Source: Tricharina praecox | Taxonomy: Eukaryota | Assembly (NCBI RefSeq): GCF_024521635.1 | Contig: NW_026250403.1 | Span: 2,480,001 to 2,544,000, forward strand | Length of the DNA stretch: 64,000 nt | Direction: 5' to 3' | Part shown: one piece after another, positions 35,914-61,494 of the stretch | Layout: each line of letters starts with the position of its first letter | How positions within the stretch are numbered: the stretch's first letter is position 1 | Notes under the pieces: generated by a model | Seen by the model: the letters and a program-made list of their open reading frames with translations, nothing else | What the model was told of the DNA's origin: nothing | Databases searched by the model: none | Made by a program: the position numbers and the translations under genes

Positions 35914-36186
35914 ATGTGTCTCCGCGTAGTAGAGAGATACGCCGTCTGCGGGTGTATCTACTTCACTCACGGAGTTGATCGGTGCGGAGCGTACGGCCAG
36001 CACCAGGTCCAGGATCGTGTAGTCCTCGTCGGACACACGTGCCCCCTCCACGCCGCCTCCTACAACCTCCACACCTCCCCCTCCTCCCACCCCTCACCAT
36101 CCCACTGTCCCTCAATGGGGGTGCTCCCGGACTCCTACGGGTCGGGACCGAAGTACTACGACGACTACTACGGCTCGCCCCGCTGA
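35914..36186 (+). CDS. Small Cys/His-rich protein (90 aa), putative zinc-binding, function unknown
   Basis: MCLRVVERYAVCGCIYFTHGVDRCGAYGQHQVQDRVVLVGHTCPLH plus a P/S/Y tail. CA-rich leader with caatcATG, strongly C/G-ending codons, TATA-like tatat/tataa boxes at about 35593 and 35708. Resembles small hypothetical proteins I recall from Pezizomycotina. Confidence 0.8.
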   Translation: MCLRVVERYAVCGCIYFTHGVDRCGAYGQHQVQDRVVLVGHTCPLHAASYNLHTSPSSHPSPSHCPSMGVLPDSYGSGPKYYDDYYGSPR

Positions 36187-37792
36187 ACCAGTTTTTTTCC
36201 TTCCTTGGATACGGTTCGATCAAAATCAAAATCCCCTCATCTTTCGGCCTCGTCTTCCTTCTTCAGCGACCCGCGATATCATCTACCTATCATATCATAT
36301 CAACTCTCGGTTTGATCTCAGTCCGTAGGAGCACACCCCCGGAATGCACTCTCGTGGATTGGAAAGCACTATCCGGAAAACTTGCAACAACATCCTCCTT
36401 CTACTCCTCCTCCTCTCAGCGAGGAGGGGGAGAGAGAGCTGGCAAGAAGTACACTGGGACAGTAGCATGAAACTACCACGGGGGACAAGTGGGTGGAGAG
36501 TTTTACGAAAATCACGGAGAACAAATGGGTCGGTGGGCATGTTTTCTGATGGGATGGGGGGAACGGCGTTTTTTGCTATTACCATTGTTTCTTCTTTTGT
36601 TCTACTGGCTATTAGTCTTTCCTGTACTTTTGTTTAGTTTATGGCGATTTTTCTCCTATGATTCATCCTTCTTCAATTCACGTTTCGTTTTATTCAATGC
36701 TTTCAAAAAGTCTCCATTATTATTTGTTCTCGCAAGTTGCGAGGGTTTACGCACTGAAGTTCAAGTAGTACCAGCATAGAGTACCAGATCGGAACCTCGA
36801 GCATTGGAGCTTGGGGTAAAATAAAAAAGCCGTTTTTGGAAATTTCAATGATAGATCTGCAATTATGAGTTATGTGGAATATGATATGTATGATGTAGAT
36901 ACTATTTGTTGCTTCCCAGCGCCAGCGCCAGTGCTCCCGCGTGGCTGTGCCCTGCGTACAGGCCCGCCGCCGCTAAACTGGTTTTACTCAAAGTGCGCAC
37001 CCGCACCCGCCGTGAGCATGAATTATTCCCTATGACTGACTGACTGGACTGAATGACTGAGGAAAGGCGTGCCCGCCGACGCAGTAGTTATCGGTTTGAA
37101 AGTTCATCTCCCCACCGTCGCTGTCATGACCCGCGCGCATTAGTTACTCCGACGCCGTCTGGATGCACTTTCTTTCTTGCTTTTCCATCCCGTCAGGCGT
37201 AGGAAAGCAGCCTTGCCTTCCTTACCTTGCCATGCGTGTAGGACAGGACAGGACAGTACCTACATGACAGCCTGAGGTTCGGAGTAATACGCATGATACC
37301 CACCTATCATCTATGTATGTACATACCAGCTACCTAGAATCTAGATACCTACTAGCTACCTGCTAGCTAAGTACCTACTCTCACCTACCGCGTTTCAAAT
37401 TTTCGCGACGGGAGTATGTACCTATGGAGTAGGTACGATCGACTTGTTTATCCAGCCTTCGCCTCCGCCTTCCTTCGCCTTCGCCTGAAGCCCACGCCCC
37501 GGCCTCGTCGGACGGTCGGACGTCCCTCCTATGCGTACCTCCCTCGTCGGAGACTCGGAGTGGGTGATCTATTAATACCACCCACCCGGCCAGGTATATT
37601 TGCCGCAGATACGCGAGTCTCAGGGTCTGGTCGAGGCGGGTTCACCAGCCACGATCCGGGGCGAGGGGCGAGGGGGCGAGGCGGCTTACGTGTGGCTAAG
37701 CAAAGAACAAGCACAAGTAGATAGAGTGCCGGTACCGGTACCGGTCTGTAGCGGTGCCGGTCAACTGACTAGTGCATAAAGTACGGTATGTA

Positions 37793-38257
37793 AAGTGCCC
37801 TGACAAAAGGGATTGGACAAAGCCCGTTTTACACCAAAAATGCCCATTTTCATGCAACCCAAACATACCCTCCACCTGGTCGAAAAAAATCGTCTCTTTC
37901 ATAGAAGCGTTAGAATCACAAGATTCTTCATCAATAAAAACTTTGACCACTTTCATCACATATTGGGGCTGTACGAGGTTGTATTGTGCAGGAGTTAAAA
38001 AGTGACATTCCATTTTGTATGGGGCTCCCATACAAAAAGCTACTTAGCAACCATTAACTTTTCCCCCGTATGGTATTGCTCCACAACAACAATTCAGAAC
38101 TCCGTGAGGAGCTTCTATATCGTTCTCGGTGTAGTTATAGAGGCCTCCCGATGGTCTCAGATTTTCTTCGATATGTTGTGGTTGTTGTATCGGTGGTTGA
38201 AAATGGCCATTTTTGGTGTAAAACGGGCACTGTCCAATCCTTTTTGTCCTAGTACTA
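37793..38257. mobile_element. Non-autonomous Tc1/mariner-type element (MITE), about 465 bp, with roughly 60-bp terminal inverted repeats and TA flanks
   Basis: 37802-37852 gacaaaagggattggacaaagcccgttttacaccaaaaatgcccattttca is the reverse complement of 38198-38248 at 47 of 51 positions. Outer ends read TA|aagtgccct.. and TA|tagtactag.., a decayed form of TA|CAGTG. AT-rich interior with no transposase. Confidence 0.85.
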
Positions 38258-39877
38258 TAGCATAGAGTACCACAGTATCATGCTGGGAGCGGGAAGCGTC
38301 TGGGAGTAGAGCAAGGCGTGTATGTAATGATACAGTGGCGGAATGAAGCGGATCAACCTTGAAGGTGGGATCGCGTGGTATGCCTCCCCAAAGCTCCACT
38401 CCGCACGGCGCACCCCCGGGTTTAGCGGGTGCGCTCGGGGCCGGCTCCAGGAACAGCTCCCCCCCAGGCTCCAAGGTGGGTGTCGTTTCGTTTCGTTCGG
38501 CTGCGCCAGCGCGCCTCAAGCTACTACCTTGTACTATGTAGTACGGTACTCTACATAGACTCTAGACTCTGGAGTCTAGGGAAAAGGTCGAATATAGAAT
38601 CATAGATGATGGAGCTCAATGCCTAAAGCCCAAGCCCAAGCCTAAAGGCCCAAAGGCGGTGAAGATCAAGCCTAAAGGCTCAAGGCCGGTGGTGGAGCAT
38701 GAAAAAGCGGCGAGGGCTAGGCAACAGTAAACATAGTAGACTTGGTGAATCGCTTGTTTTCTTTCGGGCGGGTGTCTTTGGTTAGTTACTGGGGCTTTGA
38801 GCTACCGGTACGTACTAGGTATCTACTCTACAAACGGGCTGTTTGGAAAAGCGAAATATACCGTACCGTAGAGTACCAGGAGCTGCCAATAAGTGGTGCC
38901 TCACCACCATTACGAATTATCTGCACTAGTCTATATTAGGAGCACACTAATCCAGATACAATGAAATGAGTGAGTGGTTGTGACTAAGTTGTATGGGGTA
39001 AAAACTGGTGAGGCAGCACTTACCCTTACACCCGAGTACAGTACCGTGCTCTACCGGTACATACCGACCGACAATCATCTCGCGAGCATGGAAGAGCCCC
39101 CTTGTAATCGCTCCGAGAAGAAAAGAAAAGAAAAGACAAGAAAATAAAGAAAGAACAAGTATAGTTCGAGCCCCTCCCCCGGAGCTACCATACGCGGCGC
39201 AGAGGCGGTGAAGATGGTAGATTTCGCTGCCGTCAGGCAACAAGCAACAGGCAACAGTGTCGCCCCGCACCGGAGTCTTCTCGCCTCGGAGCCTGGAGGA
39301 GTGGTTTATACATAGCACAGTGTGTTTAGTTTGTGTTCATGATCGGCGCGGTGTTTTGAGAAGCGAGCTGGAGGTGTAACAACCATTCCTATGCATATCC
39401 TTCGCACGTGGAGACGAAGAGGCGGGGTATGTTTGTATTCTACTCATGTAGGGAGGATTATAATTTATACTAGCTATCGTGACGCTTCGATTGGCCGAGG
39501 ACTTGGACGGGCGTTTGTCAAAAAAAATGTTTCAGCTCGGACTAACTACGGACTAGGAGTTTAGCTCTCGGCTTCAGTATCCATTCGCTCTGCCGCGTTT
39601 GATTCGCTGCGCGGGATATGTATTACGAATTTACGACGAGTTCCGAGACAGGAATACATCAGTTATGTAGGTACGTACGTCTTGCTTTACGGGATGGAAT
39701 GGTTAGTATGTAGATATTTTCGTCTGTTATGTTTGCGCGAACGGGTACTACCTACACGGTACTACACGACACGGTACAGCACGGCCACACGAGTCACAAG
39801 ATATCACCATGCGTCCCTTCTCTTTGCTAGGAGCCAGGTCCCAGACTACGGGTATCATACTACCCCACCCCCATCCA

Positions 39878-40606
39878 CTATAATGCCACCCCCTCCCCCT
39901 CCCCCTCTCCCTCCGCGGCCTTCACCTCATCCCTCCTCCCCTCCAAAAACCTCAGTAGATTCCTCGCCTCAGCGACTTTAGCGCCGTCCCAAACGCCATC
40001 AACGATCTCGCCGGCATCATGCACCAGCTCCTCAGCGCGCCGCAGGGTCTGCTCTAGCACGTCCAGGTCCCTACTGTTCCCGCCCGGCAGGAGGAACCAC
40101 ATCCTTACTGCCGCGGAGCGCTTCCATTCCAGGTCGTACCGATGCGCGGGTGAGAGCGCGTGAGTTGCGACGGCGAGAGAGAGTGGGTCGTACACGCTGT
40201 GGATGGGGGAGGCGGGGAAGAGTAGTCGTGGGATTTGTGTGAGCAGAATGGTCAGTGCTAGTGCGCGGCGCGGAGTCGTGGCGAGGGTGGCGATCGTGCT
40301 GGGTGTGAAGGTCGTGGAGAGGAGGGTTAGCAGCGGTGTGAAGATCCTGTGTGTGGGATGGCGTTTAGTCAGGGCACACGAGCCGGAGGGGGGAGGATGG
40401 GGGGGGGAACACTACCCGCAGGACCGGGCGAACTCCGGGGTCCGCAGGAACCAGCGGCGGACTAGGCTCGGATCTGCTGGGGCGCCAGAGGAGAGGTCGT
40501 AGCCGTCGAACCAGAAGCTCAGGAGGGCGTCGACATCGGTGGTGGTGAAATTCGGGTTGTCGCCCGCTGTGGAAGTCAGCATCGGCGTCGGCGTGGGGCT
40601 GGTCAT
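39878..40606 (-). CDS. Divergent DUF924-like protein (about 219 aa, 2 exons)
   Basis: Exons 40606-40416 and 40346-39878 join in frame (660 nt); the donor gtagtg is weak, branch ctgactaa and acceptor cag are good. LLSFWF...RRWF, LALTILLTQIPRLLF, YDPLSLAVA and RMWFLLP parallel the DUF924 motifs FWF..WF, LA.IILLDQ.PR, D..AL and R.F.YLP. Confidence 0.7.
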
Positions 40607-41039
40607 GGCTGCGTGCGCACGGGATGTCCGCCTGCCTGGAGCCTTGTTTAGCTGCGCGAGGTAAGGTGAAAACGGAGGGTGGCCGGCGGTGCGCACGGCT
40701 AAGGGTAAGGGTACTATTGAATTGCTCAGCGCCACTTGGATTCATCAATCGTCATGCCACTGCTCGTCACCATAAAAGTTGAATTGTAAGTAAACGTTTC
40801 AATCACAGTTGGAAAACTTTGGAAAGTCGCGAGTTCAAAACTTCTCCATTGTGCACAATAAAAACTACTCGTACATGATACACCAAAAACCACTCCCAAT
40901 CCCCCATCGCTAAAGCTCATTCAAACATTATCCAAGAAGTCAAACCAGACATGCATCCATAAATCATTAAAATCTCGTCCTCTCCTCCTTCCTTCCCTCC
41001 CATGTGTCCTTACTTTCTCTCATGCAAAACTCATCCCCT

Positions 41040-41564
41040 TTACACGACGGTTCCCCTAGAGCGGCGGGTGCGGTTCGAGTCGGACCTCGTGGCGGCCAAG
41101 ATTCCGAGCACAGTAGTGGCGAAGAACAAGAAGAGCTGAATGATGACGCCGGCGACGAGGAGCTTGACGAGCCCGGACATCAAGTCGGGGTGGTCGCCCT
41201 CGAGCTGGGCGCGGCGCACATCCATCAGGGACCACCAGAGAGGGTTGCGGCGGCGGTCGCCGTGGTAGTTGTGGCGGAGGAGGATGGCCGAGGCCAGGTA
41301 GAGGACGAAGACGACGAAGTCGAGGAACGCAGCCACCAATTGGAGGGTGTGGTTCAGGAAGAAGATGGCGGCCATCGAGAGCATGGTGAGGATCAGTGCG
41401 ATGACCGAGGCGGCCAGAGGCAGAGACACTTCGCGCAGGACTCGGAAGCCGCCATCACGGTATTGGTCGACCATGTAGGACGTGATGCCCATCAGGATGA
41501 CGGCGAAGAAGAACTGGAGGAGGCGGATGATCCATGTCGCAATCTTTGCAGCGCCGGATACCAT
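41040..41564 (-). CDS. MARVEL-type four-TM membrane protein (174 aa, intronless)
   Basis: Four hydrophobic segments; IRLLQFFFAVILMGITSY and AAFLDFVVFVLYLASAILL are typical of fungal MARVEL proteins; start context aaaaATGG; GC3-rich codons. Confidence 0.85.
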   Translation of the reverse strand: MVSGAAKIATWIIRLLQFFFAVILMGITSYMVDQYRDGGFRVLREVSLPLAASVIALILTMLSMAAIFFLNHTLQLVAAFLDFVVFVLYLASAILLRHNYHGDRRRNPLWWSLMDVRRAQLEGDHPDLMSGLVKLLVAGVIIQLFLFFATTVLGILAATRSDSNRTRRSRGTVV

Positions 41565-44500
41565 TTTTGCGGTTGTTTGGAGGAGGTAGTTGAGAGGATG
41601 GCTTTACTGTGGCTTGAGCGTCGATGGATGAGACCCTGTGAGGCTTCTCCGGAGTAGTGTATGTTTTTGGGGCTGGACGAGGAGGTTACTGCTCGAGTTG
41701 CTGTGAATGCTGTGGATGCTGACTTTGATATGGATGTTCTCGGGAGTGGCCCACTTTTATAACAGACATCCATTATCATCGTTAGAATGGGGTGGTCCGT
41801 CTGGAGAATAGAATACGGCCTACGTCATGGGGCCAACGAAACACCGACTCAGTGACAGCAGCAACAACAGTGACCGCTCTGGATGCCGCCCTTCAATCGT
41901 TCGCCTACCTTGTTCTTTGTCATTTGAACAGTGCCGATCAATGCCTGGGATCGGAAAATCTTGTAGCAACGTCTGGGTTTGGGTTTGGGTATTGAAGAGG
42001 GGGGGGATGACAAGGAATGCTGCAATCACATTGTTGACTGGGGGTCAAAATCTTGATTTGGTGGTGTCGGACGGGGGCACGAGGCCCAACCGCATTTTCA
42101 TCAAGGCCATCGTCGGCGTCGAATTTCGGCTTGGGGAGTCCTTGGATTACAGTGCCGAGTGCTGGCAGCAAGGTGGTTGTGTCAAGGTATGGGTACTCTA
42201 CCGCGGCGCTCTGCCCCGGCCCTGGTACTTTTGCAACACAGCACTAACCATACCACGCGTGGCCAAACGGCACGTACGAGCAGGTACCTCGTCATCCGAC
42301 AGACTCTACGTCGCATGTACCGGCGCCGACTCGAAGGCGCGATCGGGGGGGCGATGGATGGAAGGCCTCTCCGGTTGGCTGTGGGCAAACACACGTTGTT
42401 CCCGGATCCCAGTCTCCGTGAAACTTTTGGTTGCACGAGCAACTGTGACGTTGCGGTGCAGGCCAGTCAGCGGCTGCAGGCCGGGGACTGGGAAGAAGCA
42501 GCAGCAGCAGCTCCAGCTCCAGCTCCAGCCACTGCCGACCCCGACAGCGACAGAACCAAAAATCACGAGCAGAGATCTCTGATATCGGCGCGCATCTCTC
42601 CTCCATTGAGCAACGAAAGCGGAGTGGCTGTCATCGGTCGAGGATGCATGAGTGCTCCGAAGTGTGTCTATTGTTCGACGGTCGGCGGTGGTCTGATACG
42701 AGCACTGACGTCATCCTTCGCGAAGTCCACAACGGCGCGACATTCCTTCGATGGCCATCGATGCAGAGACCTGTCCGGTGCTCTACCTAACTCGCCAACC
42801 CTCCTGCCGACATCCGCGGAGAAGTTTCGAGAGGGTTCTCTCTCGCATCAAGTCTCCTCGCTGCGGAGAATGGGCAGACTCGCGGTCATCGTGGGTAGTT
42901 ACTGTAATCGACTGCAGGCAGAGGTCGAGGCCAGAAGAAGAGGAAAAGGAAGAAGATGAAGATGAAAGTGGAGATGAAGAAGTCGCTAGCCTTGTCTTCC
43001 ATACCTCTCACGATCTTTGCAATTCCCCTATGGGCCGTTTCCGGCCGTCCTGCCCTGTACCGGACGGATCAAGCAGCCGTCGATTCTAGGTATGATACAT
43101 ACGGTACTCTACTGTGCGGAAGGGAGCCTGCCGCTTTCGAAGATAGTGGGAAGGACCTCCGGGCCAGCCAGTGGTGTAGACATGGTAGGATGAGAAATCA
43201 AGCCACCCTTGAGTCCTCAACACAATATCTGCTCGCAAATTCGGCGAATAGGCGACGCGTTTTCTCAACCACTATCATGTGCAATCCGGACAAGTGTGGC
43301 GCAGCGTTGAGGCGAGTTGTCGCAATTCCGATTGACCCATGATTTTCGATGATAGCTTCGACGATAGCTACGTTCACAGCCTGGGCACCGCACGCCGGCC
43401 ACCGCGAATGCCTTCTCGATGCGGGTTCTCATGGAACATCATTTAGAGTAGGCTTGCGATCAACCGCTGGATCATAAGCGAGCTGGCCACCCCGGACCTT
43501 ATGTGGTTAACTTGATTTTCGTTTCTCTCGGTTGACACAACGCACGCACGACGGGACACTACGTAGAGTACCATAGCTTCCGTCTGGCGGCATATGCATA
43601 AACAACGTTTCTGGGGATTCACCATGGCCGCTGTGCCAGGAGAACTCCCGTCGGACAGAACATCATGCAGCATTCAAATTAGGCAGTACTATTCCATAAC
43701 GGCAGTACATATAGCACATCTTTAACGTTTTGGCCGAACACTTGTCTAAGCGACATCCACAGTTATGCATAGATATCTACACAAACAACACCGAGGCGCC
43801 GAATTGAAAGGGGAGGCTGGTTGGCAGCGGCGAGGATTCGCCATTGGCGGTAGAGCGCCGTTGACGTCGTCGCCGCCTTTTCAGTGTAATCTAATCCGAT
43901 TTTGTGGGCCCGCTCGGTGGGCAATTCCGGATGTCCATCAATCGTCGTCCAATTGCCTGGCTAGTACTGTTTCATGATGCTTCGCTGAGCAGTGGAGCGC
44001 GCGCTCGTACAGATCTGTTATGTACCGAGCGGGTCGTGCATATATCACGAAAAATAAGGGCGTTTTTTGGTTTATGAAAGTCCTCACCTTTGACTCCTGT
44101 CTCCGTGCAATCATCTTGAACTCTAGAGACACCTTAAATGTAAGCCTTCTTTTCGCTCGGACAAAAAAAAAATCCTTCTCACGATGGAGTTCACTGGCGA
44201 TTTCCACGTCCAGAAGAACCTCACAGTACGCCAGTACCGCCAGGAGTGTCGAAAACTGCAGGTTAATATCTGGAAACAAGTCCCGATCCCAGGTACTTTT
44301 TTGAAATTCCCCGTACCTCTCATTCCTCCGTCATAGGCTCCCTCATAGGCTCCTTCATCATGCCAATGCTCGCCGCGCCTTCTCGCTGCCGCCGTCAAAC
44401 CCCTGATACGGTACCTACCGTGGCATTGGGGAATTTTCGTTCGAATTTTGAGACAGATAACCTTGAACTTATCGAAGTCTATGCAACTCCAATCACGAGC

Positions 44501-45077
44501 CCGGAGCCAGATAGATTGTGAGATGGCCCATGGGAATGTCCAGTGTAGCATAGTATACACCCTACATACAACGCTGGAGGTACCGGGCGATTCCGGAAGA
44601 AGCTCAGCACAGTAGGTTCCAAAATGTGCAGCACACTTTGCGCCTATCTCTTTACGAACGGTGCATAGCTGATTCATGATTCATCCTCACATCTTTAGAG
44701 CCTCCTCGGAGTCTGTATCAGTGATCACTAATTGCGAAACCTCAGTCCTCGATAAGGTAGTTAACCTGATTTCCTTCTGGTGTTGAGTCTGTCGGAATAG
44801 TGAAGGTGCACAAACTCATTTTGCAGCAAGCTGCCTCAAGCAGTATGTCCACGAACTGTTCTCATCAACTAGGCCAGGCCTGATCAACGAGTACATACAG
44901 CCCGCGGGACTCGGCGGGGAAAAGTATCGTTTAAAGCTTTTACCTCACTCATGAATATTTCGTATGTAGAGTACCTACACAGGCAGCAAGACCACCCATC
45001 CCGCTCCCCGCAGTACCTTGGCTCGAAGTGCATCACCTCTATCATTCATGTCACAACCCTTACTGCCAACAATCATC

Positions 45078-45196
45078 AGCTACGGTCATAGAACCATGAA
45101 CACACGGCTTCCCGTCCGCTCAGCCCTAGTTAAGCATGGTATCGCCAGGTTAGTACTGCAGTGGGTGACCATGCGGGAATCCCTGGTACCGTAGTT
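45078..45196 (+). rRNA. Dispersed 5S rRNA gene (119 nt)
   Basis: Helix I agctacggt/accgtagtt; helix II gaaccatg/catggt(a)tc with the bulged A; conserved ggcttcccgtccgctcagcc, ttaag, ggttagta and gtgggtgacca..gaatccc; helix V gccagg/cctggt; T-runs immediately downstream. Confidence 0.95.
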
Positions 45197-45209
45197 TTTG
45201 TTTTATTTT
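45195..45209 (+). terminator. RNA polymerase III T-run terminator of the 5S gene
   Basis: tttttgttttatttt at and directly after the 3' end of the 5S sequence. Confidence 0.8.
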
Positions 45210-47668
45210 ACTCCCGACATGTGTCCACTGTCCATTGGATGTAAAAGCTTCGAGGCCTAACGCGCGAAGAATTTTCGAAGACCCTTTTTCGGCTTCGAGT
45301 TCTCGCAGCGCGAAGGGTCTTCTCTTAATCCGATTCGACTCCAAGTACTCTGTTGACTCGGATTTTCCAAAACGTCGGTGAACCGCCCTGCTCTCCGGCG
45401 CCCAGCATCCATCTCTTTGATATCTAATTATGGATCCAGAAGGGGTAGAAAGGTTTTGAGTTGGCCCGTCACCTGCTTCTACACTTATGGCTTGGAATCC
45501 TGCATAGTCAGTCACTCGACCTTACGGAGTGATAATCTATGCACGTACAACAAAAACCGAGATGAGATTAGGACTTTGGACCTACGCGCGTCAAGAGACA
45601 TATGTAGCCCATGTCTATTGAGCTCTAGTCTTGTATCGGTTGGTTTAACCCGCTGGGCGTGAGTCATCATCCTTCGCACGGTAGATAAGATAAGATGCGA
45701 TTGGACAGCCGCACGAGCAGTGGTTGCAGGCTTATTCTTGTAGCCGCGTAGCCTTGCTTCTCGTCCTAGACAAAGACGATGAACACTCCTACTGATTCTT
45801 TCTTCTTACCTCTCTGCAATAATCGGCAGCAGCACGCTTTGGTCGAGACTCTCTGAGGCGGAATATTACATCTGGGCAGGGAAAGCACTAGATGCGTTGA
45901 CAACAATCTCAGGATACCACGATCTTCTTATTGAGAGGGATATATACAGCGCACCACTTTTTAGATAGACGGTCAAGGGCACCGGCTCCTGACGTGCTTC
46001 AAGCGGACCATTAAAGTGCCATGGATTGTCAAGATGGCAGGATGCCAGGGACATTTAGACAGGCCCGGATCACTCGTGTCTAGACTCTACTGACTACAGT
46101 TATAATACATATAGGTTTATGGGTGTTTGATTTGTGCGCTATATATACCAAGCAGCTCATATGACATAGGTACTAGAGCAAAGGTCTATAACCGGCAGCA
46201 GACGTCTTGCGCGTGCCATGTGGATACCTTAAATACCTATCGCTTCAACAGTATCTGTGCAAGTACATACATTACCAAGATCATTCTCGCCTGGGAATCC
46301 CTGGCTTACGTCTCCAGCCGCTAGGTAGTACCGTACCTCGTCAAACAGACGCCTCTCGATCGGATAGCGCGGCTTCCTTCATTTCACTTTGTGTGGCGCC
46401 GTGATCGATGTGCACACTGCATAGAGAGAGGAGGCGTTCTGTTCTTCCCGATGAAAGGGCGATTTGGTGCCCGCCTCGGCTCGTGACTCGCAAGTCGTCT
46501 GCCGTTCCGTGGGAGGCTCTGCTCGGGAATCGGGATGTTTGCAGTACTCTAACTAGGTAATTCGTGTCAGGTTGTCAGCCACTCGCCAAACGTGGTTTCA
46601 CATAGAGTGTAACTTACCGTGTAAATTGCAATATAAACCTTCCAGGGCTAGGGGCCTGGGGCGGCCATGGAAGTTTGTGAAGTCGGCTGTATGTATTGTA
46701 CGCGTGTCGGAACGCACATATCTAGAGTATCTGAGCGGCATTCGCCATCCGCCGGTAAACAACTACCCAGCTATTTTTAGATATCGGTCGGGACTCGGTG
46801 ACTCGGCCGTGCACGGGGCCACTGGCATGCACGGCCACATAGATAGCCGAGCGGTCTTCAGCCCCGCCACGCAGAGGCGCAGTCAGTGAATCGACAGAAC
46901 CGCTCGCGTTACACGCACGTACGGACGGATCGCGAGAGGGGAAACTCGGAAACTGTGCAGCTCGGAAACAGGTTTGCATGCTGACAGTGCGTCAGGTTTT
47001 GGATTCATCATCATAAGTTCATAACCGCCATGCTTCTATGCATAGGTACTCTAGGTGGGTGGGTGCGCAAATACGGTTCGTCCACTCTCTTGATCGCCTC
47101 GGCGACGGCGTGCTCATCGTTTTTTTCGTCTGGGAAAACCGATAGGTTGGTTATTCCGTAGACAGGTATCATACGTAGGTACAGGTATGTAGGCAGGGCG
47201 AGGGTCTGCCACGGCCCACCGCCAGTGGTTCCGAATGCTGCGATAATCCTTCCGCCAGTCATCGCATACCTTCTTTCCTCCCACTGAATATCATTGGGGT
47301 AACGTATCTGCACGCAGCAGGTAGAATCCCCTGCGGTCGATCCTGATGCCGTGGCTGCTCTTTGCTGGTACCGCAGATCCGGGTACATACCACCGCAGAG
47401 CGGATTTTGAAGTACTCATACAGTACAGTAGAGTAATCACGAATACGCATCATCAGGCCCACTAAGCAGCGTGAATAGATAAGTACACACCCCGCCCGCA
47501 CCTCATAATCACAGAAAAAGAAGACGTGTCACGCTTACGGAAGATCCTTTGCCACACGTCAGGTCGGCAGCAGAGGGTATAAGATGGCCGCAAATTCTCC
47601 CACGCGGTGCGAGGGCAGGGCACTTTCATGGGCTTTCCGGACAACACCAACATCAGCATAATACCATC

Positions 47669-48503: not shown

Positions 48504-48700
48504 GGTTTCTTAATTCTATTAATCCTGTCATGAAATCGTTTTTGGGACTTCTTTACTGTTTTTATGGGGTTTGGGGCGTTTTGTATATCATCGAGGCCGA
48601 GAATTGTTACACCAGTGTCATTAGAACGCATCAAGTTAAATTCGTGAACAATTATCTTCCGAAGCTACCTCGTCCTCATCACGTCTACTACGATTATAGT

Positions 48701-49778: not shown

Positions 49779-50042
49779 TGCGGCGGCGGTGTTCCACGCA
49801 ATGTATTATTGACGGCTTTAACTTGTCGTTGTGAGGTGAAGTTTGCGTGTTCAGCTTGTCTATCGAGTTTGTATATGCTCGGAGAAATATAGAAGCTCCG
49901 TGAGGAGGTACACAGGTGGTTTAAGTACATGTAACCACATAGATGTCGGTCACTTAGAATATAGTCAGAATATGCTTGTCCATTATCTGCATGGACCGCC
50001 TCCGCAATAGCACTTCTCCCTCGATGTACGAGTAGATTGAGA

Positions 50043-50219
50043 CATACACTTCGGAGACTTCATTCGAAGCACTTCGCCGGTAACATCTCTGTGACTTTGG
50101 ATGTCACGGAATGTACGAGAACTTTGATTGCCATACGCAAAATACCAAAAGATACACTGCGAAGACTTGATTCTAGGCAACTTTCCGGTAACATCTCGGC
50201 GACTTTGACTGTTACGGAA
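50043..50219. repeat. Imperfect direct repeat: 69-bp core at 108-bp spacing
   Basis: 50043-50111 and 50151-50219 align without gaps at 54 of 69 positions by my count. Confidence 0.8.
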
Positions 50220-53200
50220 TTCCGGGTGCTTTTTGGTGTTTCACGGGCCGGCATCGTACACGGCAATAAAAAGCGAAAGCAGACAATGTTGGACAGTACA
50301 CGGTATATATTTCCTCCGTGTTGCATGTCAGAATCTTCCAAAAGATTCGACAATACGTTTACACTATCATTATTCGTTAGTCGCCGAAATGTGTGCGAGA
50401 AGACACGGATGTCCGGTGCTACCAGAGTTGTCTGACGCAGTATCGATCTTTACTGTCGGCGGCAGACCATCCAGCGCTTATCTCGTTACACTGGGCGGAG
50501 ACAACGAACTGGTTCAGTTGGCGGGTAGATTGTAGGCGTTTCAGTTGGGTTGCCGCCGGCTGTCGGATTTGCAAATTGCAGCTGTTGCGGTTCGCTCATG
50601 ATTTTTGGCCCAGTTGAACGGCCAAACTGTTTGCACTGGCAGTTTGAATGAAACTTTTTTTCAACACCTTTCACAGCCTAGAAATCACTAATAACCGCAA
50701 AATAAAACCCCCTTACATACTCATATGCATCCGACATAACAGCTTACTTAGTACAGCTTCGCAGCGGCAGACATGATTACTCCACCGCATTACTACCAAT
50801 TCGATAGCAGTTTCACAGTCTGGAGGAGTTCAATCGGAACTATTGATTACATGCGACCTATCTAATTATGGCAATAAAGACTCCGCTTCTTCATCAAGGA
50901 ATTTCATGAAAGAGTATATGGGGATGCAGCTTGCAAGATGCAACAAGTGCGGCGAGGTTTCACTCTACATCACTCGCATGCCCGACTTGGCGCGTGTTGG
51001 AAATGGTGATTGAACAGTGAATTGTATAAGAACTTTGTATCTTATTCAGATAACAGAGGTTATAGTCTCAGAGAAGGTTAAAGGCTCGTGATTTCCACCA
51101 TGAGTATGCCATCGAGTGGTATATTATCAGCGCGCAGTGTTCGCAACAGAGTTAAGCCTGCCCATATAATGCACTGCTCGGAACCCGCAAGCCCAAGATC
51201 ACCCTCGATTCAAACGATTGGTCGAGGTGAGAGAAGAAGTAAGACAGCGGAGCTAGCTGATGAAAGTTGCCCTTGGTCAACATCTTTGCATGCCGTTGCG
51301 AGGATTATCACTCGTTTAAAACTCAGGGCTGAGTTTTTGGCGGCAAGTTGCAACTGACACCATTGAATGGAAGGAATCAGTCCAGCCCAGCCCATAAAGT
51401 GAAGGGTCATGCTTAGACGGTCCGTCAAACACTTTCCGAAATTTTGAGGCGATGCCGCACTGGGAGGCACTGGAATGTCTCGACATCTGGCAACGGGATG
51501 GACTTGCACATAGCTGCTACAAAGGACGATTGCAAGGAGATGGGGCGATGCGTATTGTACTCTTTGAGGAGGAGGATTTACAAATTACAATAGCTTTATA
51601 AAAACTTCGTCAATAATGTCCAACAGGAACTGAAACTGGAAAAGCAAGTGCGAGTGCTGGAGTATGATGGTACTATGCTCCAGTGAGGACGAATTGCTGT
51701 CCAAGTTTATTACTCTAACGGGCTGCAGCCGTGAGGATAGGCTACACGATCACCTGTTATAGATACTTAGGTGACTGTAACTGATTTATGGTTTGTAATG
51801 GACACTTTATGTCGGCTGTTGAAGACACGAGCAATCACACATCAAAACGATATCTCCGCCGGTCTTCGATCCCTCCAATACTCCAGGCCTAGTGATTCAT
51901 CTGCCACATCCACCAAAGCCGATGTAGGCGCCTAATGGGGAAGCCACATGGTCGGTGGCCAGAGGGAAGCTAAGTCACTACTCACACGGCCGGAAATTTT
52001 GGCCGTGTGAGTAGTCAGTTACATAGAGTACATAGCAGCGACCTTGCAGCGGGACGTTCCGCTGCGGACCCCAGTCCACACCGAGAGTCAAGACAGGTTG
52101 AACGGCGAACATGTGGATCAAGCCGATACTTTACGGAAATCAGCCTCGCCGTGGCTTCACTTCACCACGCTTGTGTTTCCACATTTTCGTTTCTCGGCTA
52201 CTCCCCCTAATCGGGCTGGGGCTCGCCACTCTGCGACCTCTCTCGAGAAACATCGTACGGTACATACCCCTACTTACCTTGCCATTGGGATTCCCGCCAG
52301 CCTTCAAATTACCTCCAGGAACAGGTCACAGAGTACATTGCCAACAAGCGACTCATGAGATCCGGATCTCGTGAAGGAAAAGAAGAAAAAAACCAGGAAA
52401 AAAAACATATCATGTTGAACTCCGGACCCCATCTTCCTAGAGTATATCTAGGGTATATCACCCAATATCCGTCCCCTCCCTAGTTATCCGGGCGGGCGGA
52501 ACACGATTGCCAGCGACCTATTTTCGGGGCCCGGAGCCACCGTTCAATCGCTCTACATCAGACAGCCGTCCGACCAGAGGTCCAACACGCACAAACAAAA
52601 TATAGGTCACATAACTGTAGATACAGTACATACAAAGTATCTACATACAACTTCGGCGACACTCCCGGATCGGATCGAATCGCTATACCTAGTATATTCG
52701 CCCGCGTTAATGTTCCAGGATTAGGCAATTACAATCCGATATTCAGATTTAGGTGGCCAATGATGACGCCAGGTCCAGGTGATACCGATACCTACCGAGG
52801 TAGATCTATCCACACCACACGGACCGAGCGAACCTCCTGACCTTCCATGCGCAGGCTCGGCGTCGGCGACGTCGGCGCTTCAGGCTTCAGGCACTGGGCT
52901 CTGGGCCTTTCAGTGGCCGGGGGGGGAGCGTGTTGCAAGTTACAAGTTGCGAACCAACGACTCTCGTCAGGGGGGTACCGCAGTCGGAAGCGCCTGTAAG
53001 GAGAAGAAGAAGGAGAAGAAAAAAAGAAGCAGGCAATTATCACGATCAGCCGTTACACGGATCGCCGATCAATCCGTGGCTCGCACGGTCGCACCCAAGT
53101 AAGTAGGTGCATATGTAAGTAGTTACCGCGCCCGTTTATCTGGCGGCAAAAAAAAGGAGCAACAGTAGGCGGGAAGCGTCTAAGTCAACCGCGCACTGCA

Positions 53201-56200
53201 TACTGCATCACGTCTGATAGAGTAGAGCGATCGCTTCATGGTGTGTTACATCGAGACGTGCATAGTTCAGACGCGGCCCGCGCTCCGATGGATTACCTAC
53301 GGTATCTGTACTCTAGTAAGATATTCGAGAAATTTCGCTGTATGTACTGGTAGCAGAATAATAAAACGGCAGAGGAAATTCGGGCCAAACCGGTGACTGG
53401 TGGGTCAGCACCTTGGTAGGTACCTATCGGGGTGAGGATTTTTTGAAAACGTTGATCTCCGAAGCATCGTATCATGTGTACCAGTACATGCCTGAATTCC
53501 AACAGTGGATCAGGTGCAATCTCAAGTTTCGACCCTAGACTGTCTCTCCGGTATTCGGCCGGAAGTCTCCAGCCTACACGATGGCTAACTAACTGGGATG
53601 TGGATTCGCCAACACCGATTCGATTAAGGTTCGAAACCGGCGTGTGGATGGCCAGTTGCGCGCGAGACACCGGAAGACGGCCATGTGTAGGAGTGTAGGT
53701 TGTCGCCAGGGTGGCATATACTAGCAGTTAATTATTAGTTAGTTACTCTCTACCTATCGAACAATAGCCGTCCGCTTGAAATACCTAGGTAGGCAATCAA
53801 TTCTCCTAGTCCATCCCCCGTCAAAGCTCGTGTTTGGGCCGTCTATGCGCGTTTCTGTGGGATTGACTTTGAGCGCGGGGAGGGGTGGGGTTCCTGTTCC
53901 TGCAGGTCCAGTCACGTCCGTATGATCCGAGGTTGCATGATGCTCGCGAATGAACGTGCGTGGGGGAAACGTATGTACATGCTTACATGCATACGTGGGC
54001 ATAGTTACCAGCGCCGAAGCATACATAGGACAAGCTCATTTCGGAACGACGCTTGTCTGGACAGTGGATTCTGCGCAGGCGACGTGACGTCGCGGAGTTC
54101 TAAGACCTCAGCTCTCCGAGTCAGGAGGTAATCTTTTCTAACGGCCACAACGCTAAGCTTAAAAAAGGTGTGTGGCTGTGGCAAGGAGTCACGTGCTTGC
54201 AGCAAAGAAAGGTTTTCACCCCTGAGTTCCGTGTCTGTACCATAACCACCAACCATTCCTACTACCACCATCACCATATCCAAATAACTTCAACCAAATG
54301 TCTTCCGGTATGACTTCCCTCCCACACTAGGTATGCGTTGTATTGAAAGAAGCAGCTCTTTCAGTTAGATAAATCCGCTGATTTACCTGTGGATCAGTTC
54401 AGCGAAGTTGGGCCGTTGGTGGGCAGTGTCTACGCGTTTCGAAATAGGAGTATACAGCAGAACAAAGCAGTATCCAACCACGAGTCGATGACAATCCGAT
54501 CCAACACAGAATCAGCAGCGTCCGTGATACCGATCAGTGTCCGGTTACTGTCAAGTTGACGCGTCAACTCGTCGGACTGCATCCCACCGTTATTCTCGAA
54601 CGCGAAACCAAACATTACCACAGTTACCATTTTGAAACCAGTTGCACGGCGAAAAAGTCAGCTGATCGCGACAGAAGTCGAGAAGAACTACCTATTCCGC
54701 TGCTCATATTTTATTTTTACTTGGAAACCGAAACGAAGGATTTAACCTGATGTCTAGCAACGGTATATTCATATGTTTGATGAGCTTGAAACAGCTGTGT
54801 ACGTGACGACTGGAGTGGTAGTGTTAGTGGAATGAGTTGATGGGGGAAACCAAATGCGAGGCCGTCGCCAGCAGAAAGTCTCGGACTTGGATGGACCAGT
54901 TTAGAGAAGCTGTTGCACCGCCGGAGGAAATTTTCGAAAGGCAAAGGCCATGGGAGTTGTATATATTTTCTTTTAGAATAATTTTACTATGAGACGAGTA
55001 ATCGCTGCAAAAATCTGAATTTCTTGTGACAGTTATAATTTTCGATGGGATTATTTGAAGGGCATGAGTCGGTATGCCGCGGAATCTGCTATGGTTGTGC
55101 TGTGCTGACGACGGTGTTGGTATGTATGTAGGCCCTAGGGGCGACTCTTCGACAGGCGACAGCCACACCCACATCTGTTGTGCCACACGCTAAACTTTAG
55201 CGTTGCGGCCGCTAGAAAAGATTCCGTCAGGAGCCAGCGGGCGTGCGTCATCACATGCGCAGCCAGCGGCCACGGCGCGACTTCGTGATCTTTTTTTCTT
55301 CTCTTTCTTTCTTTTTTATCCTTTCGTCGGTGGGATGACATCTAGCGATGGGGGTCGCATGCCGTCCGCACGCTGTCTAGTATCCGCACAGGCTGAAGAT
55401 TCGACTGTCAAAAGAAAAACAAAAAACAAAAAACAAAAAACCGGTTGGCCGGTTGGGATCGAAACATGGCAACATGGAAATTCCGGCTCTTCAGCAGGTA
55501 TCATCCATCCATCCATCTATGTACCCATCCATACTTGGTACATACCCTCGCATCCCAGCGTATCGACGGACCACTGGAGCTTCACGTTGTGAGAGGTGCT
55601 ATGGAATTGAGTTCTGCCAGCTAGCCAGCTATGTGAACCGGCGCCGGTAGAGTACTACCTATATCAAGTGTGCTCCCGCAACGGATTGCCGGAAACAATC
55701 GATGGGCCTTCCAAACATCGCCCGTCCAATAAACACGTACCTTGCAGGCCTGTTTGCGATATCTACTCTACTCTACTCTACGTGTATTCGACGTATGCAG
55801 GTACATAGCTTGTACTCTATGTACTCTAAGCCTAGCGGGGGCCGGCGTGGTACTGAGCAATGAGCATCTCAACGCATTTTTCCTGTTCGGCTCCGAGTGC
55901 CCCCCTCGCCGTGCGCTGTAACTAGGCTGGAGCCGAGTGGTATGCAGCGGATATAGGGCAAAAGCCTGAAACTTTTCGGCTATGATGGGTGGACAATATA
56001 TGTCTGTTTCAACTTTCCTCTGCCACTTTGCTCCCTATGGTGTCCTATCCCCAACGCAGGCAAGCGGCTGGATCGGCGGTCCGAAACAGTCGACCGTTGC
56101 CAAGCTCAGCGGATGAAGTAGACCACCCTGGCGTGCGATCGATATTGGCCATGGGTTTGTTTTTTCTGCTTCTTCTCTGCTTCTCTGCTTCTTCTTTTTC

Positions 56201-59200
56201 CGGGCCCCTGGGTGTGCCGATGCGCCCGTTACACATCCCATCACTCACGTCTGCAGCACAGCACATAGCACAGAACCCATACGCCCTATCCACTCTACCG
56301 TACTCCGTTCTATCCACCTCATCCACAAGTTTCGTCCGTCGTATATCGGGCTGGGGTGGTGGGGGGGGGGGGGGGGGGGGGGAGGGCCTGGGTTTAAATG
56401 ACGGGGCTAGCCATACGAGTGCCCGCCCCACCAAGGTTCTCGCCGACCCACTCCACTTCGTTTCACCCCACCAGCATAGCATCATCACCGCACCGCCGGT
56501 GCGTATGTATGCACCGCCCAGTACCCACCGCCCACCGCGGCCCGCATCGGCTTGGTGGGGCTTATCCGGCTATTTGGTACGCACATATGTAGGTAGAGTA
56601 CGTACCGCGAGATTCCTCTGACCACCACCCGACCCGATGCACTGCACCCGATGCTTCCGATGCATCCACAGCAGAGCGTTAGAGACATAGGTACGGTATC
56701 CACACACTCTCGGAATGTGCGTGCGTGCGTGTGCAATTGAACATGTATGTAGCCCGGAAGTGTGCAGTGCTTGGCTATAGCACCGTACATAGCAGCCAGG
56801 ACTGAGGAAACAAGGCTTGCAAGTGGCCGAGGGCGTAAGCAGGCCAGCAAATAGTGTTTACTAGTATGTAGCCTCCAATGAAACCCCGACCCGACGAACA
56901 CATCCATAGGTATGTAGGTATAGTAGAGCATGTAACCCCCGGCGGCCAAGCATTCGCTGGAGCATTGAGCAGAACAGATATTCGCTCGTATGTAAATATG
57001 TGCGGTGTATGTAGGTGCGGGCGTTTCGGAGAAATCGGAGGTGCAGAGATGCAGAGATGCGGAGTTGCGGATCTGGGAATTGCCTGACCTCAGCAGTTTT
57101 TTTCGCTCGCTCACGGCTCCCGAAACACACCATACCGCAGTTCGCAGTCCACACCGCAGTCAGCAGCAGCAGTCCCGACCGGCGCCGGCGGCCGGGCACC
57201 TGTCCGTCAGCGAACTCAGCGAACTCAGCCCTCGTCTTCCCGCTCCCCACACCCCCGCACCCGGTCTGTATGTACTTGCATACGGTACAGGAACGCGGAA
57301 GAAAACGATGAGGAAAAGAAAAAGAAAAAGAAAACAAACAAATAATAAATAAATAAACAAATGATTAAAGTTTCGATACGAGGGACGGCCCGGGGTTATT
57401 GGGATGACCAAGTTGACGGGGAGAGGAGCATCCGATCACCGCAGAACCGCAGAACCGCAGAACCGCACCAACCGCTCTAACTATCAGTCTACTCTATAGT
57501 AGTAAGTATTTACGCACGCAAGCACATACTTGGGTTGTTAACCAGCGCGGCCAACGCTTTTAGCCACAGCCTACAGGTAGCGACTAGTATACTCACATTC
57601 CGTGTACTTATATACGGGAGAGGCGAGCTATGTAGACGGGCCCGGCTGTGTCTGTGTGTGTGTGTGTGGGCACGCTACGATAACTACTATACACGAGCAA
57701 TTCACATGTGGGTGGGGGGGTCTATATCGCCCATTTTTTTATCGATATCAGCCCATGGGTAAAGCCGCACACACAAAAAACCTTAGTGCGGGATGTAAGT
57801 ACTATACGAGGCAGGTACACGCTCCAGTTTGGCAGCGGTATGATGAGGTATGAGGTATGTATGTAGTGCATATGCACAGATGCATTGGATACTTACTCTA
57901 CCTATATATGATAGATATAAATTAAAGCCGGCCGGTGCGGGGCAAGCATATGGATTGTAACGATACGAGAATTGTATGTATGATGGATGGATGTAGGTAG
58001 GAATTGTACAACACATGAGTACCGGTACCTTCCTACACGCCCAAATTCACTCATGAGTGGAAACCCCCGCCCCCGCCTTGCTTTCTTTTTTTCGGGTTCT
58101 TTTTTGTTTCCTTTTATCTTTTTTGGAATTGATTTTTTCAATTGCCCTGAGTGACTCAATTCCGACAAGTCCACCACCCGTCATCTGCGTAGAGCTCTTC
58201 GTACGCTGCTGACAGGAAAGTACTTGTATGTATGATAGGTGGTGAGAAAGTGAATGAGCCGCCCAAACACCACCTCGTAGATACCTCGCACCGTACCGTG
58301 ATAGTGCGACACACCCGACTGAATTTCAAGGCGCAACGACCAACGACTCATGGGACAAACGCGCCTAAAAACCGCACAAGATGCGCGTCCGCATCTGAAA
58401 TCGAACGCTGACGATTCTCGCCGCTTTGCAGCCACGGGGTACGTCCGTAAGTGCCCGAGGAGCATATGATAGTGGAGTACTCACTGCAGTACTCGGGCCG
58501 GAAATGTGGGTTTAATCGGGTGCATGGTGCCCACTGATGGGAACAGCAATCCACCTTCACATCGGATGAGTTCCGTCTGCACCAGAGCGGGGCACAGTGA
58601 GCGGGAAAGAGTACAATTCACGCCGTCTACTGTAGTCCCCAGACAATTGACTCCACTTATGATACCGGAAGAAACTCATTTTCTATTGAACGAACACGCA
58701 GCACGCAACCCGAGTAACCCAAGAAGAAATCCAAATCCAAAACCAAAAATCCAATTTCCTGACCGAAATCCCATACCAGCCGTGATTCCCGAAAGAACGA
58801 AAACGAAAAAAGGGAAACAACCCGACAAACAAAAACAAAAAACACCACGCACCGTCTATGTAAATAGTATGTATCCTGACCAACCAGCCCTAAAAAAGTA
58901 ACAAAAAAAACAGTAGCACGTAACATACATATACTCCCCATCCGTGTCTATATTCCGATCCCTTCCTCCCTCCCTCTCGTTCTCTCCCCTTTTTCTTGCC
59001 CCGATCCCCCCGATCCCTCGATCCCGTAAACCTGTCAGTGTAGCCGTTTTTCCCGCGCATAGTACAATGTGAAGTGCGGCGACAAGCCCCGCAATAAAAA
59101 TGATCAGCCCAGACAGACTCCCCAGCCGAAAAAAAAAAACCGAACCCGGAAAAGAAAAGGATAAATAAAGGGAATCAAAAATACACGGTCCCACACGATC

Positions 59201-59230
59201 GATGACGAAGAAGGGGAAGAAGAGGGAAAA

Positions 59231-59266
59231 GAAGAAGAAGAAGAAGAAGAAGAAGAAGAAGAAGAA
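59231..59266. repeat. (GAA)12 microsatellite downstream of the 55-aa gene
   Basis: Perfect trinucleotide run. Confidence 0.95.
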
Positions 59267-59697
59267 AAAAAGAATCCGGAACAGACAGCGGGGAGGTGCA
59301 ATAACGACAATACGAAACGGTATCATCAATTAATCGCTGTTGAGTGCGGACTGTGTTGAATGGCAGGGATGGCCCAGACCGCTTTGACGCGGTGAGTGGG
59401 GCTGTTGCCCACATCCTTCCATCCAGTGTTCCATGCGCTTCTCCGATCGTTGTTCGTTTCGTTCGCTCGTTCGAATTCGTTCCGACGCCCTTTATGTTGC
59501 AACCACTGACCGCTTCGTACCCGGAATCCCCTCTCTGAACACGTGCCCGCGAAGTGGGCGATGTCTTCTTTTTTTTTTTTGCTTCTCTTCGTCTCTCGGT
59601 CTCGGTCTCGGTCTCGTCTCAGGTCTTCCTCTTGGTCTTCGTCTCTCCGTCCTCTTCTTTTCCTCGTGCCCTCTCGTATCCACTCGTCCTGTCTCCT

Positions 59698-60258
59698 TTA
59701 TGTGGATTGACAAGTTCCTGCCCAACCACAGTCAGTACCTAGAGCATATGGCCGTGGCCAACACGACTGGAGGGAAGGAGACATACCGCATCTATGGTCG
59801 TTTCGATGATCTTCGCCAATAACATTTACCCCGCAGCGTACGGTACCCTGACTTTGCACATACTGCGTGCACCAGGCTCTCACGATGATTCGGAAATGTC
59901 CTTTGATCACTGTCAGCTTCCTGTCCTTTCTTTTCTGTTTGTCCATTTGTTTCCGTGTTCTTGTGTGGGTTGTGGCTTGGTGGCTGGCGCTTGCGGGTGC
60001 ATGCGTCTCCCACCACTCTCCCAACCACCATTCCCAGACCCGAAGGAGTGGAGGCGAGGGTGGCGAGAAGCGGAGGTATCGGGGAATATTTTTTGGAGGC
60101 TTGGGGAAAAGGAAAGGGGAACGTGCGGATCATGAGATCGATCCAAAGCAATAGATTGACTGTCTGGCCATCTTTCTTTTTGGTACACTGGTAGTGGTTG
60201 GCTGGCGGTGTCGATAGAACTTACCGCATCCATAGAACACCTTGGTATAATCACACAT
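59698..60258 (-). CDS. Spliced Cys/His microprotein, 55 aa: MCDYTKVFYGCGHFRIIVRAWCTQYVQSQGTVRCGVNVIGEDHRNDHRCGTCQST
   Basis: Exons 60258-60225, 59900-59787 and 59717-59698 (168 nt). Start context gccaccATG. Intron 1 gtaagt...gctgac...aag (324 nt); intron 2 gtatgt...actgac...cag (69 nt); both phase 1 in Gly codons. Resembles recalled fungal hypothetical proteins of the MCDYTQVEY.CGH.R..VRAWC..Y.....RC...V......CGDC type. Confidence 0.88.
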
Positions 60259-61374: not shown

Positions 61375-61494
61375 ACGGTGATGGTGGTCGTGGTAGTGGT
61401 GGTGGTGGCGGTGGTGGTGGTGGTGGTGGTCGATGGTAGGTGGTCGATGGTAGGTAGTGGTGGTGGTGGTGGTGGTGGTGGTGGTGGTGGTGGT
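61375..61494. repeat. Interrupted (GGT)n microsatellite
   Basis: About 120 bp of GGT/GTG units with occasional substitutions. Confidence 0.9.

Follow-up and report, generated by a model that had tools for sequence, protein, structure and literature searches.

A stretch of 64,000 nucleotides (nt) from Tricharina praecox (contig NW_026250403.1, positions 2,480,001 to 2,544,000 of the forward strand; here called the window), which looks like filamentous-ascomycete DNA, carries two small genes for proteins rich in Cys and His that both begin with Met-Cys: gene 1 on the plus strand (35914–36187) and gene 2 on the minus strand (60258–59698). The two point toward each other, as an earlier note on this DNA had stated, and lie 23.5 kb apart. 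That note had taken them for ancient paralogs encoding zinc-binding regulators, each beside a long gene-free tract, and had proposed that they form a system with a block of cell-fusion-type membrane genes between them. Both genes turned out to be real and conserved in other fungi; their products, judged by sequence, are without detectable similarity to each other.

Gene 1 (P0001) is a single-exon, uninterrupted open reading frame (ORF) of 90 amino acids, and the exact protein is present in the protein collection, encoded on a contig of 3.2 Mb. Its translation has precisely the ligand layout that had been read from it before, MC-x9-CxC-x9-C-x5-H-x12-CxxH; when the window was block-shuffled 200 times, unspliced matches to MC-x7-10-C-x-[CH]-x7-10-C occurred at a mean of 0.04 per shuffle. 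Directly 5′ of the ATG lies a CT-rich tandem array (35828–35902, plus strand; Tandem Repeats Finder, period 11, 6.9 copies), which probably is the leader or core promoter. Gene 1 has three close relatives in the protein collection, including a hypothetical protein from Ascobolus immersus, and profile A1 was composed of these four sequences. Among 1.84 billion representatives, A1 matched 459 at E ≤ 1e-3, 239 at E ≤ 1e-10, and 3 at E ≤ 1e-30, which gives a family of 459 clusters at 50% identity. Of 151 family sequences, 149 have MC-x9-CxC (the exceptions being one truncated at its start and one with the match further in). A second alignment, A2, contained gene 1 and the 78 listed matches that start at residue 1 and span the domain (79 sequences); the 72 sequences that A2 omits are mostly ORF calls on unannotated contigs, with “MC” opening the match at residue 3–184, and in three of them the domain is cut short. 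Gene 1 scored 83.8 bits (E 1.6e-24) against a hidden Markov model (HMM) of the 149 family domains, its own domain included.

Family members are between 54 and 865 amino acids long, with bare-domain members (54–150 amino acids) alongside long ones, and gene 1 is among the shortest. In a Pfam scan of the 79 members, no family covered the N-terminal domain, and the tails behind it were mostly domain-free (two SH3, one aspartyl protease, and one LsmAD domain). All source names found for the family read “hypothetical” or “uncharacterized” (for example, BJ508DRAFT_322592 from Ascobolus immersus, KAF8254128.1 from Wilcoxina mikolae, OTB04211.1 from Hypoxylon sp., and KAI8683390.1 from Fusarium keratoplasticum). 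Named sources were Wilcoxina, Kalaharituber, Ascobolus, Cryomyces, Sphaceloma, Phyllosticta, Acephala, Hypoxylon, and Fusarium, species that we take to belong to the Pezizomycetes, Dothideomycetes, Leotiomycetes, and Sordariomycetes. On the strength of these matches, gene 1 belongs, as one of the short members, to a large Pezizomycotina family without a name, on which a literature search aimed at fungal zinc microproteins returned no paper. The tails of P0001 (residues 67–90) and of P0002 and P0004, which are among its closest relatives, are otherwise divergent and have in common a Gly-Val-Leu-Pro-Asp-like motif followed by Tyr-rich residues; it may be a short linear motif.

The N-terminal domain of gene 1 covers approximately residues 1–50 (35914–36063, plus strand), as delimited by the conserved columns in the 79 sequences and the 149 domains; in the family it is ∼48 residues long and begins at Met1-Cys2. 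Nine columns of A2 are invariant (M1, C2, E7, C12, C14, C24, H30, G40, and C43), and Y16, H19, D22, V39, and H46 are conserved in at least 90% of the sequences. All eight ligand candidates, C2, C12, C14, H19, C24, H30, C43, and H46, are present in gene 1. Across the 149 domains, H19 was retained in 147, C24 and H30 in 149 each, C43 in 146, and H46 in 144; that C2, C12, and C14 are fixed in this count is partly due to the pattern by which the domains were selected (MC-x9-CxC). When the domain alone was modeled with AlphaFold 2 (AF2), the predicted local distance difference test (pLDDT) was 90.3, with strands at residues 3–9, 15–22, and 33–39 and a helix at residues 44–50; in the model of full-length gene 1, pLDDT was 90–97 across residues 1–50. 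The predicted fold is, in this confident model, one of three strands and a helix. A PDB search with the domain returned no matching structure (the Foldseek rows were weak, PerR and Zur chains among them), and PDB sequence searches with the profiles of both families gave matches to low-complexity tails only, or none. Because it stands strictly at the N-terminus, before variable tails, the domain looks like a metal-stabilized N-terminal binding or regulatory module, and gene 1 would consist of little beyond this module and a short Tyr/Ser/Pro-rich tail. Eight ligands would suffice for two tetrahedral zinc sites, with one putative site made up of the CxC turn and the CxxH at the start of the helix, and a second putative site made up of C2, H19, C24, and H30.

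Gene 2 has three exons, which together hold a spliced ORF of 55 codons. The coding part of exon 1 (60225–60258, minus strand, as are all parts of the gene) runs from Met1, the ATG of which stands in the context ACC-ATG, to the first base of Gly12. It is followed by intron 1 (59901–60224; 324 nt, phase 1, GTAAGT...CTGAC...AG), by exon 2 (59787–59900) with 38 codons and the invariant core AWCTQYVQSQGT, by intron 2 (59718–59786; 69 nt), which is in frame and without a stop, and by the coding part of exon 3 (59698–59717), which comprises the last six codons with the CxxC and the TAA stop. The layout MC-x8-CxH-x8-C-x11-C-x14-CxxC previously assigned to gene 2 is that of the spliced 55-amino-acid product, except that the stop ends at 59698, not at 59697. 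By eye, neither this N-terminus nor that of gene 1 is hydrophobic, in agreement with the claim that both proteins lack a signal peptide.

Two public runs, X1 and X2, whose label as RNA is a guess, match the gene 2 region. Their contigs were examined over positions 41001–61000, where uncovered parts are not evidence of silence. Because the contigs have GT..AG joints in three genes and cover only part of this span (19 and 18 of 30 bins), both runs were read as transcript assemblies. The spliced gene 2 contig of X2 (1,295 nt, depth 60) extends from 59279 to 60930, with a 672-nt leader and a ∼420-nt trailer, and covers 59279–59716, 59786–59899, and 60224–60930; at its two joints, gaps of 69 and 324 nt with CT..AC borders (GT..AG when read on the minus strand) correspond to the predicted introns to the base. 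Just past its 3′ end lies a (GAA)23 microsatellite (59207–59274), which breaks contigs. Since an X2 contig (58701–15) is found beyond the repeat, and since similarity to L001, one of the relatives of gene 2 described below, runs to 58760, the trailer may be ∼1 kb long and reach ∼58.7 kb. If the runs are indeed RNA, the gene 2 mRNA would be spliced and no shorter than 1.3 kb. No ATG lies upstream of the start within 346 nt in the window, 322 nt in L001, and 274 nt in L005. The protein was not found in the protein collections searched, where no candidate of 36–116 amino acids shared words with it and none of 871 longer candidates scored, which fits the earlier note's point that spliced genes of less than 100 codons are often overlooked. 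The read-through peptide of gene 2 had no Pfam match at E ≤ 1, and exon 2 retrieved only weak bacterial rows from the Atlas (≤0.80).

When metagenome contigs were scanned with the read-through peptide of exon 2, seven loci were obtained, which fall into three sequence types (L001–L003, L004, and L005–L007) and represent three distinct fungal relatives, L001 being the closest. In all three types, the 11 residues that exon 1 encodes are unchanged or almost unchanged. The window, L001, L004, and L005 have both intron positions in common, one in phase 1 within the Gly codon of C-G-H and one in phase 1 before the terminal Cys pair, with introns 1 and 2 being 284 and 66 nt long in L001, 301 and 60 nt in L004, and 197 and 104 nt in L005. 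L005, the least certain gene model, has Cx3C in place of CxxC in its third exon. All four orthologs begin with MCD, the AWCTQYVQSQGT core is invariant in 4/4 sequences, and the ACC-ATG context is found in the window, L001, and L004. Seven ligands are conserved (C2, C11, H13, C22, C34, C49, and C52), whereas His43 and His47 of gene 2 are not conserved in L005.

The substitution pattern was that of a coding sequence. Between the window and L001, the 11 residues of exon 1 are identical, yet 6 of the 11 codons differ, all synonymously. Over the first 42 codons, comparison of the window with L001, L004, and L005 revealed 19, 17, and 17 codons with synonymous differences only, versus 4, 8, and 11 that changed the residue. 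When substitutions were placed at random, so few residue changes were obtained in 0 of 5,000 trials for each of four pairs (simulated means 16–24). Identity of third positions between the window and L001 was near saturation (23/42), whereas 38/42 residues were kept. The read-through peptide of intron 2 was not conserved, whereas the exon parts flanking it were. Thus, the codon tests, the read-through test, the ATG-free zone, and the start context together argue that gene 2 is a real, protein-coding gene under strong purifying selection.

The non-coding surroundings of gene 2 are partly conserved as well. Long ORF-poor flanks, which the earlier note had emphasized, are kept in both relatives with long contigs: with a codon model derived from the window, which overlooks microgenes, no coding-scoring ORF, and no ORF with a Pfam match, was found within ∼6–8 kb on either side of gene 2 in L001 and L005–L007. 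L001–L003 are collinear with window positions 58760–63563 at 66–77% identity (blastn), and nothing in the window downstream of 58760 aligns to them. On the upstream side of gene 2, conserved non-coding DNA (60931–63568; 6879–9680 in L001; blastn blocks of 67–77% identity with L001–L003) continues for ∼2.6 kb beyond the upstream end of the gene 2 contig, so that at least 3 kb are conserved upstream overall. The upstream blocks were 60–75% identical per 100 columns between the window and L001, compared with 23/42 third positions, and are therefore more conserved than synonymous sites; of the codons that keep their residue between these two sequences, 19/38 also have the same third base. Because it produced matches in several frames and on both strands, the upstream block does not resemble a missed protein gene. 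Intron 1 contains three blocks of ∼20 nt that the window has in common with L001 and L004 (alignment A4), one of them around a CCTTCGGG motif. The only Rfam row in 59.2–61.0 kb was a sub-threshold one for a small nucleolar RNA (E 0.34). The conserved flanks suggest that gene 2 is under tight transcriptional control.

With respect to the claim that the two proteins are distantly related, all four profile tests were negative. The gene 2 protein scored 0.1 bits against the HMM of the 149 gene 1 family domains, a score reached or exceeded by 436 of 2,000 composition shuffles in which “MC” was kept. In the profile-to-profile comparison with hhalign, only “MC” was aligned between the four-sequence gene 2 alignment and that of the gene 1 family (probability 0.26%), and in global mode the alignment score of 0.28 was reached by 172 of 200 column shuffles. 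Conversely, the gene 2 HMM scored at most 3.5 bits on gene 1 family domains versus 6.3 bits on reversed controls. Common to both proteins are the Met-Cys start, Tyr9 (the Tyr shortly before CxC or CxH to which attention had been drawn), and the rough order of ligands, namely, a Cx[CH] turn, a Cys, and a late Cxx[CH]. H19 and H30 of the gene 1 family are without counterpart in gene 2, the spacings of which differ and which has CxH instead of CxC; CxC is present in 149/149 family domains, and CxH in 0/149.

In the block between the two genes lie a DUF924 gene (39881–40741, minus strand) and a gene for a MARVEL-like four-helix membrane protein (41043–41603, minus strand), the latter covered by contigs of depth 1203 and 3600. 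Against the MARVEL domain PF01284, it scored 32.5 bits (E 1e-7, profile positions 3–101 of 135), just under the Pfam cut-off of 32.8. A spliced transcript of low coding potential adjoins this gene (41935–43615, plus strand; X1 and X2 contigs with GT..AG joints at 42184/42282 and 42661/42726; no Pfam match) and could represent an unannotated gene or a spliced non-coding RNA. A complete 5S ribosomal RNA gene (45078–45197, plus strand; Rfam RF00001, 101.7 bits), with very deep soil metatranscriptome cover, stands alone in the gene-poor stretch between two membrane genes. The second of these (47738–48595, plus strand; joints 47737/47800 and 47858/47945) is spliced and encodes a multi-pass protein of ∼240 amino acids with four transmembrane (TM) segments; presumably it is the gene previously called HAM-8-like. 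It had no Pfam match, and in the Atlas it retrieved unnamed Ascomycota clusters (0.90–0.93) and MARVEL clusters (0.80–0.81), with no HAM-8 cluster. HAM-8 of Neurospora crassa (NCU02811) is a cell-fusion membrane protein of 597 amino acids with 4 TM segments (PMC4184795). Both are multi-pass membrane proteins, but at 597 versus ∼240 amino acids, in a comparison by length and description only, the assignment to HAM-8 could not be upheld. A short-chain dehydrogenase gene (48876–49805, minus strand) follows before the second tract.

Within ±10 kb of the gene 2 relatives, neither a gene 1 family domain nor any gene of the window's block was found, and the nearest downstream neighbors were a FGGY kinase gene in L001 and a phosphoribosyltransferase gene in L006. 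Because these neighbors differ, the downstream neighborhood of gene 2 is not conserved, the span of ±10 kb being shorter than the 23.5 kb that separate the two genes in the window. Within this span, the proposed system with the membrane genes found no counterpart in the relatives.

The gene-free tracts were in part as described. A codon-usage scan detected no coding-scoring ORF in 24.6–35.9 kb, 49.8–59.3 kb, and 60.9–64 kb, with that same window-derived model, to which microgenes are invisible (gene 1 scored 0.6 and gene 2 exon 2 −9.7), and the longest ORFs of these tracts had zero Pfam matches. The contrast with the block, however, had been overstated because 36.2–39.9 kb and 41.7–47.7 kb, inside the block, are likewise devoid of coding-like ORFs. 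Microsatellite arrays are numerous in the gene-poor tracts, which are not empty, given scattered X1 and X2 contigs in 50–59 kb and the spliced contigs in 41.9–43.6 kb. At 54267–54968, X1 and X2 contigs with a depth of up to ∼415 match at only ∼88–92% identity with small gaps; this segment probably is a diverged copy of a highly expressed sequence located elsewhere in the genome. The first tract is bordered by a Zn2Cys6-type transcription factor gene (22069–24642, minus strand; Fungal_trans E 2.7e-16, with a weak Zn_clus match at its 5′ end), so that these 11 kb are the divergent intergenic region between that gene and gene 1. Scans for transfer RNAs found none.

The explanation that we consider probable is that genes 1 and 2 are two independent genes for metal-stabilized, small, cytosolic, Cys/His-rich proteins and do not constitute a system. 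What was observed in this respect (INDEPENDENCE) is four negative profile tests and the absence of a gene 1 family domain and of any block gene within ±10 kb of the gene 2 relatives. That they lie close to each other and to the membrane genes is most probably a coincidence. Were they instead ancient paralogs with one zinc-binding fold that has diverged beyond sequence recognition, acting as joint regulators, possibly of the intervening membrane genes, one would expect likenesses such as those described: Met-Cys and Tyr9 in both, Cx[CH] at residues 11–14, a Cys 8–9 residues later, and Cxx[CH] near residues 45–50, predicted strands of gene 1 that match, by eye, hydrophobic-alternating stretches of gene 2, and convergent orientation 23.5 kb apart. 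Given the negative profile tests, the family ligands H19 and H30 without counterpart in gene 2, the CxH found in no family domain, and the differing neighbors of gene 2 in both long-contig relatives, we consider this unlikely, though a possibility of some weight.

Three further readings concern the nature of the products. The Met-Cys start could be a processing signal, instead of or besides providing a metal ligand, with the Cys being oxidized, arginylated, or acylated after removal of Met, which would make the proteins conditionally unstable or membrane-bound sensors. This would account for C2 in 149/149 domains (in part a result of the selection pattern), for the match from residue 1 in all 78 A2 hits and the “MC” that opens the match in longer ORF calls too, and for MCD in all four gene 2 orthologs. 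It is weakened by the reported restriction of fungal N-terminal Cys oxidases to chytrids (PMC10092093) and by the position of Cys2 inside a confident fold, residues 2–3 being the start of a confident strand in the AF2 model, which fits a structural ligand better; we give this reading only a slim chance. That one or both proteins buffer metals in the manner of metallothioneins, instead of being structured modules, would suit small, cytosolic, Cys-rich proteins and the CxC motif of gene 1, but a modest Cys content (7/55 residues in gene 2 and 6/90 in gene 1), the conservation of aromatic and beta-branched residues and of His ligands, and the confident fold of gene 1 make it very improbable. Finally, the gene 2 transcript might be a non-coding RNA that contains the 55-codon ORF by chance. 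It is long for so short an ORF and has six ATGs in its leader, intron and flank sequence is conserved, the codon score is negative, and the ORF is missing from the protein collections; in view of the 0 of 5,000 simulations in each of four pairs, a frame under purifying selection that kept 38/42 residues despite 23/42 third positions, conserved intron positions and phases, and an ATG-free zone before the start in three species, the probability of this reading is close to nil.

Several points weigh against two independent zinc proteins. Profile tests are weak on Cys-rich domains of 50 residues, and the gene 2 profile consists of four sequences. The elements follow in parallel order in both proteins (Cys2, strand, Cx[CH] turn, strand, Cys, loop, strand, Cxx[CH]), and a common fold of the gene 1 domain and the gene 2 protein retains a minor but real probability. 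Zinc binding by both proteins is probable on the basis of ligand conservation, and the assignment of the gene 1 ligands to two sites is a proposal. Gene 1 (35914–36187) lies outside the span of the run contigs (41001–61000). As regards gene 2, the X1 contig 59279–60118 is unspliced and retains most of intron 1, which shows that there is intron retention or pre-mRNA as well, and the 672-nt leader of the X2 contig contains six upstream ATGs, which may mean that translation is limited or controlled, or that the contig merges two transcripts.

In the preferred reading of two independent genes, each protein would begin with Met-Cys and probably fold around zinc, and gene 2 would be a microgene alone in a long, partly conserved non-coding landscape and under tight transcriptional control. 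The function of both genes, the role of the gene 1 domain as a module, and regulation through the conserved flanks are what we infer from these features. A bolder proposal, which we regard as rather unlikely, is that the gene 1 domain is an undescribed zinc fold that is obligately N-terminal since the metal is bound by Cys2, possibly together with the amino group that removal of Met sets free; gene 2 would then be a minimal, extremely diverged relative within the same superfamily, bare-domain members would be dominant regulators that pair with or compete against long members, and the expression of gene 2 would be set by several kilobases of conserved non-coding DNA like that of a developmental switch gene.

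Irrespective of this, the gene 1 domain is widespread in filamentous ascomycetes (459 clusters), with named sources that include cup fungi and truffle-like species, a black fungus living on rock, and pathogens of plants; no Pfam model covers it, and no similar structure was found. With a confident model and eight invariant or near-invariant ligands, it is a ready target for structure determination and metal analysis. Gene 2 shows that comparative data and transcript contigs can prove conserved spliced genes of less than 60 codons, and its conserved non-coding surroundings, which are unusual for a fungal gene, suggest complex regulation. The apparent system arose from a common Met-Cys start and nearby membrane genes being taken as a functional unit, and the data lend it no support.

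Among known kinds, the closest for gene 1 is its own unnamed MC-x9-CxC family, of which it has all eight ligand positions, whereas gene 2 does not match it (0.1 bits). Twin Cx9C (CHCH) proteins have two Cx9C motifs, on both helices of a helical hairpin. Gene 1 does contain C2-x9-C12 and C14-x9-C24, but beta strands were predicted (pLDDT >90), and there was no Pfam match; this class was therefore rejected. Metallothioneins have a very high Cys content in CxC and CxxC clusters and few or no aromatic residues; they were dismissed as well, given that Cys accounts for 7 of the 55 residues of gene 2, in which Tyr, Phe, and Trp are conserved, and for 6 of the 90 residues of gene 1, in which Tyr and His are. 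The Cys/Arg N-degron pathways of plants and animals have substrates that resemble both genes in the invariant Met-Cys N-terminus, but the N-terminal Cys oxidases are reported to be absent from non-chytrid fungi (PMC10092093), and Cys2 is here within a predicted fold. MicroProteins of plants and animals are described as small single-domain proteins that titrate related larger multi-domain proteins (PMC6003976). The gene 1 family is like them in having bare-domain and long members that share the N-terminal domain; gene 2 differs in being without known long relatives, and titration by the gene 1 family is an analogy only. The gene 1 domain is likewise comparable to small structural zinc modules, such as zinc ribbons, treble clefs, and the Zn(Cys)4 domain of Fur, PerR, and Zur, with which it shares a size of ∼50 residues, candidate ligands both at a hairpin turn and where a helix begins, and predicted strands plus a helix.

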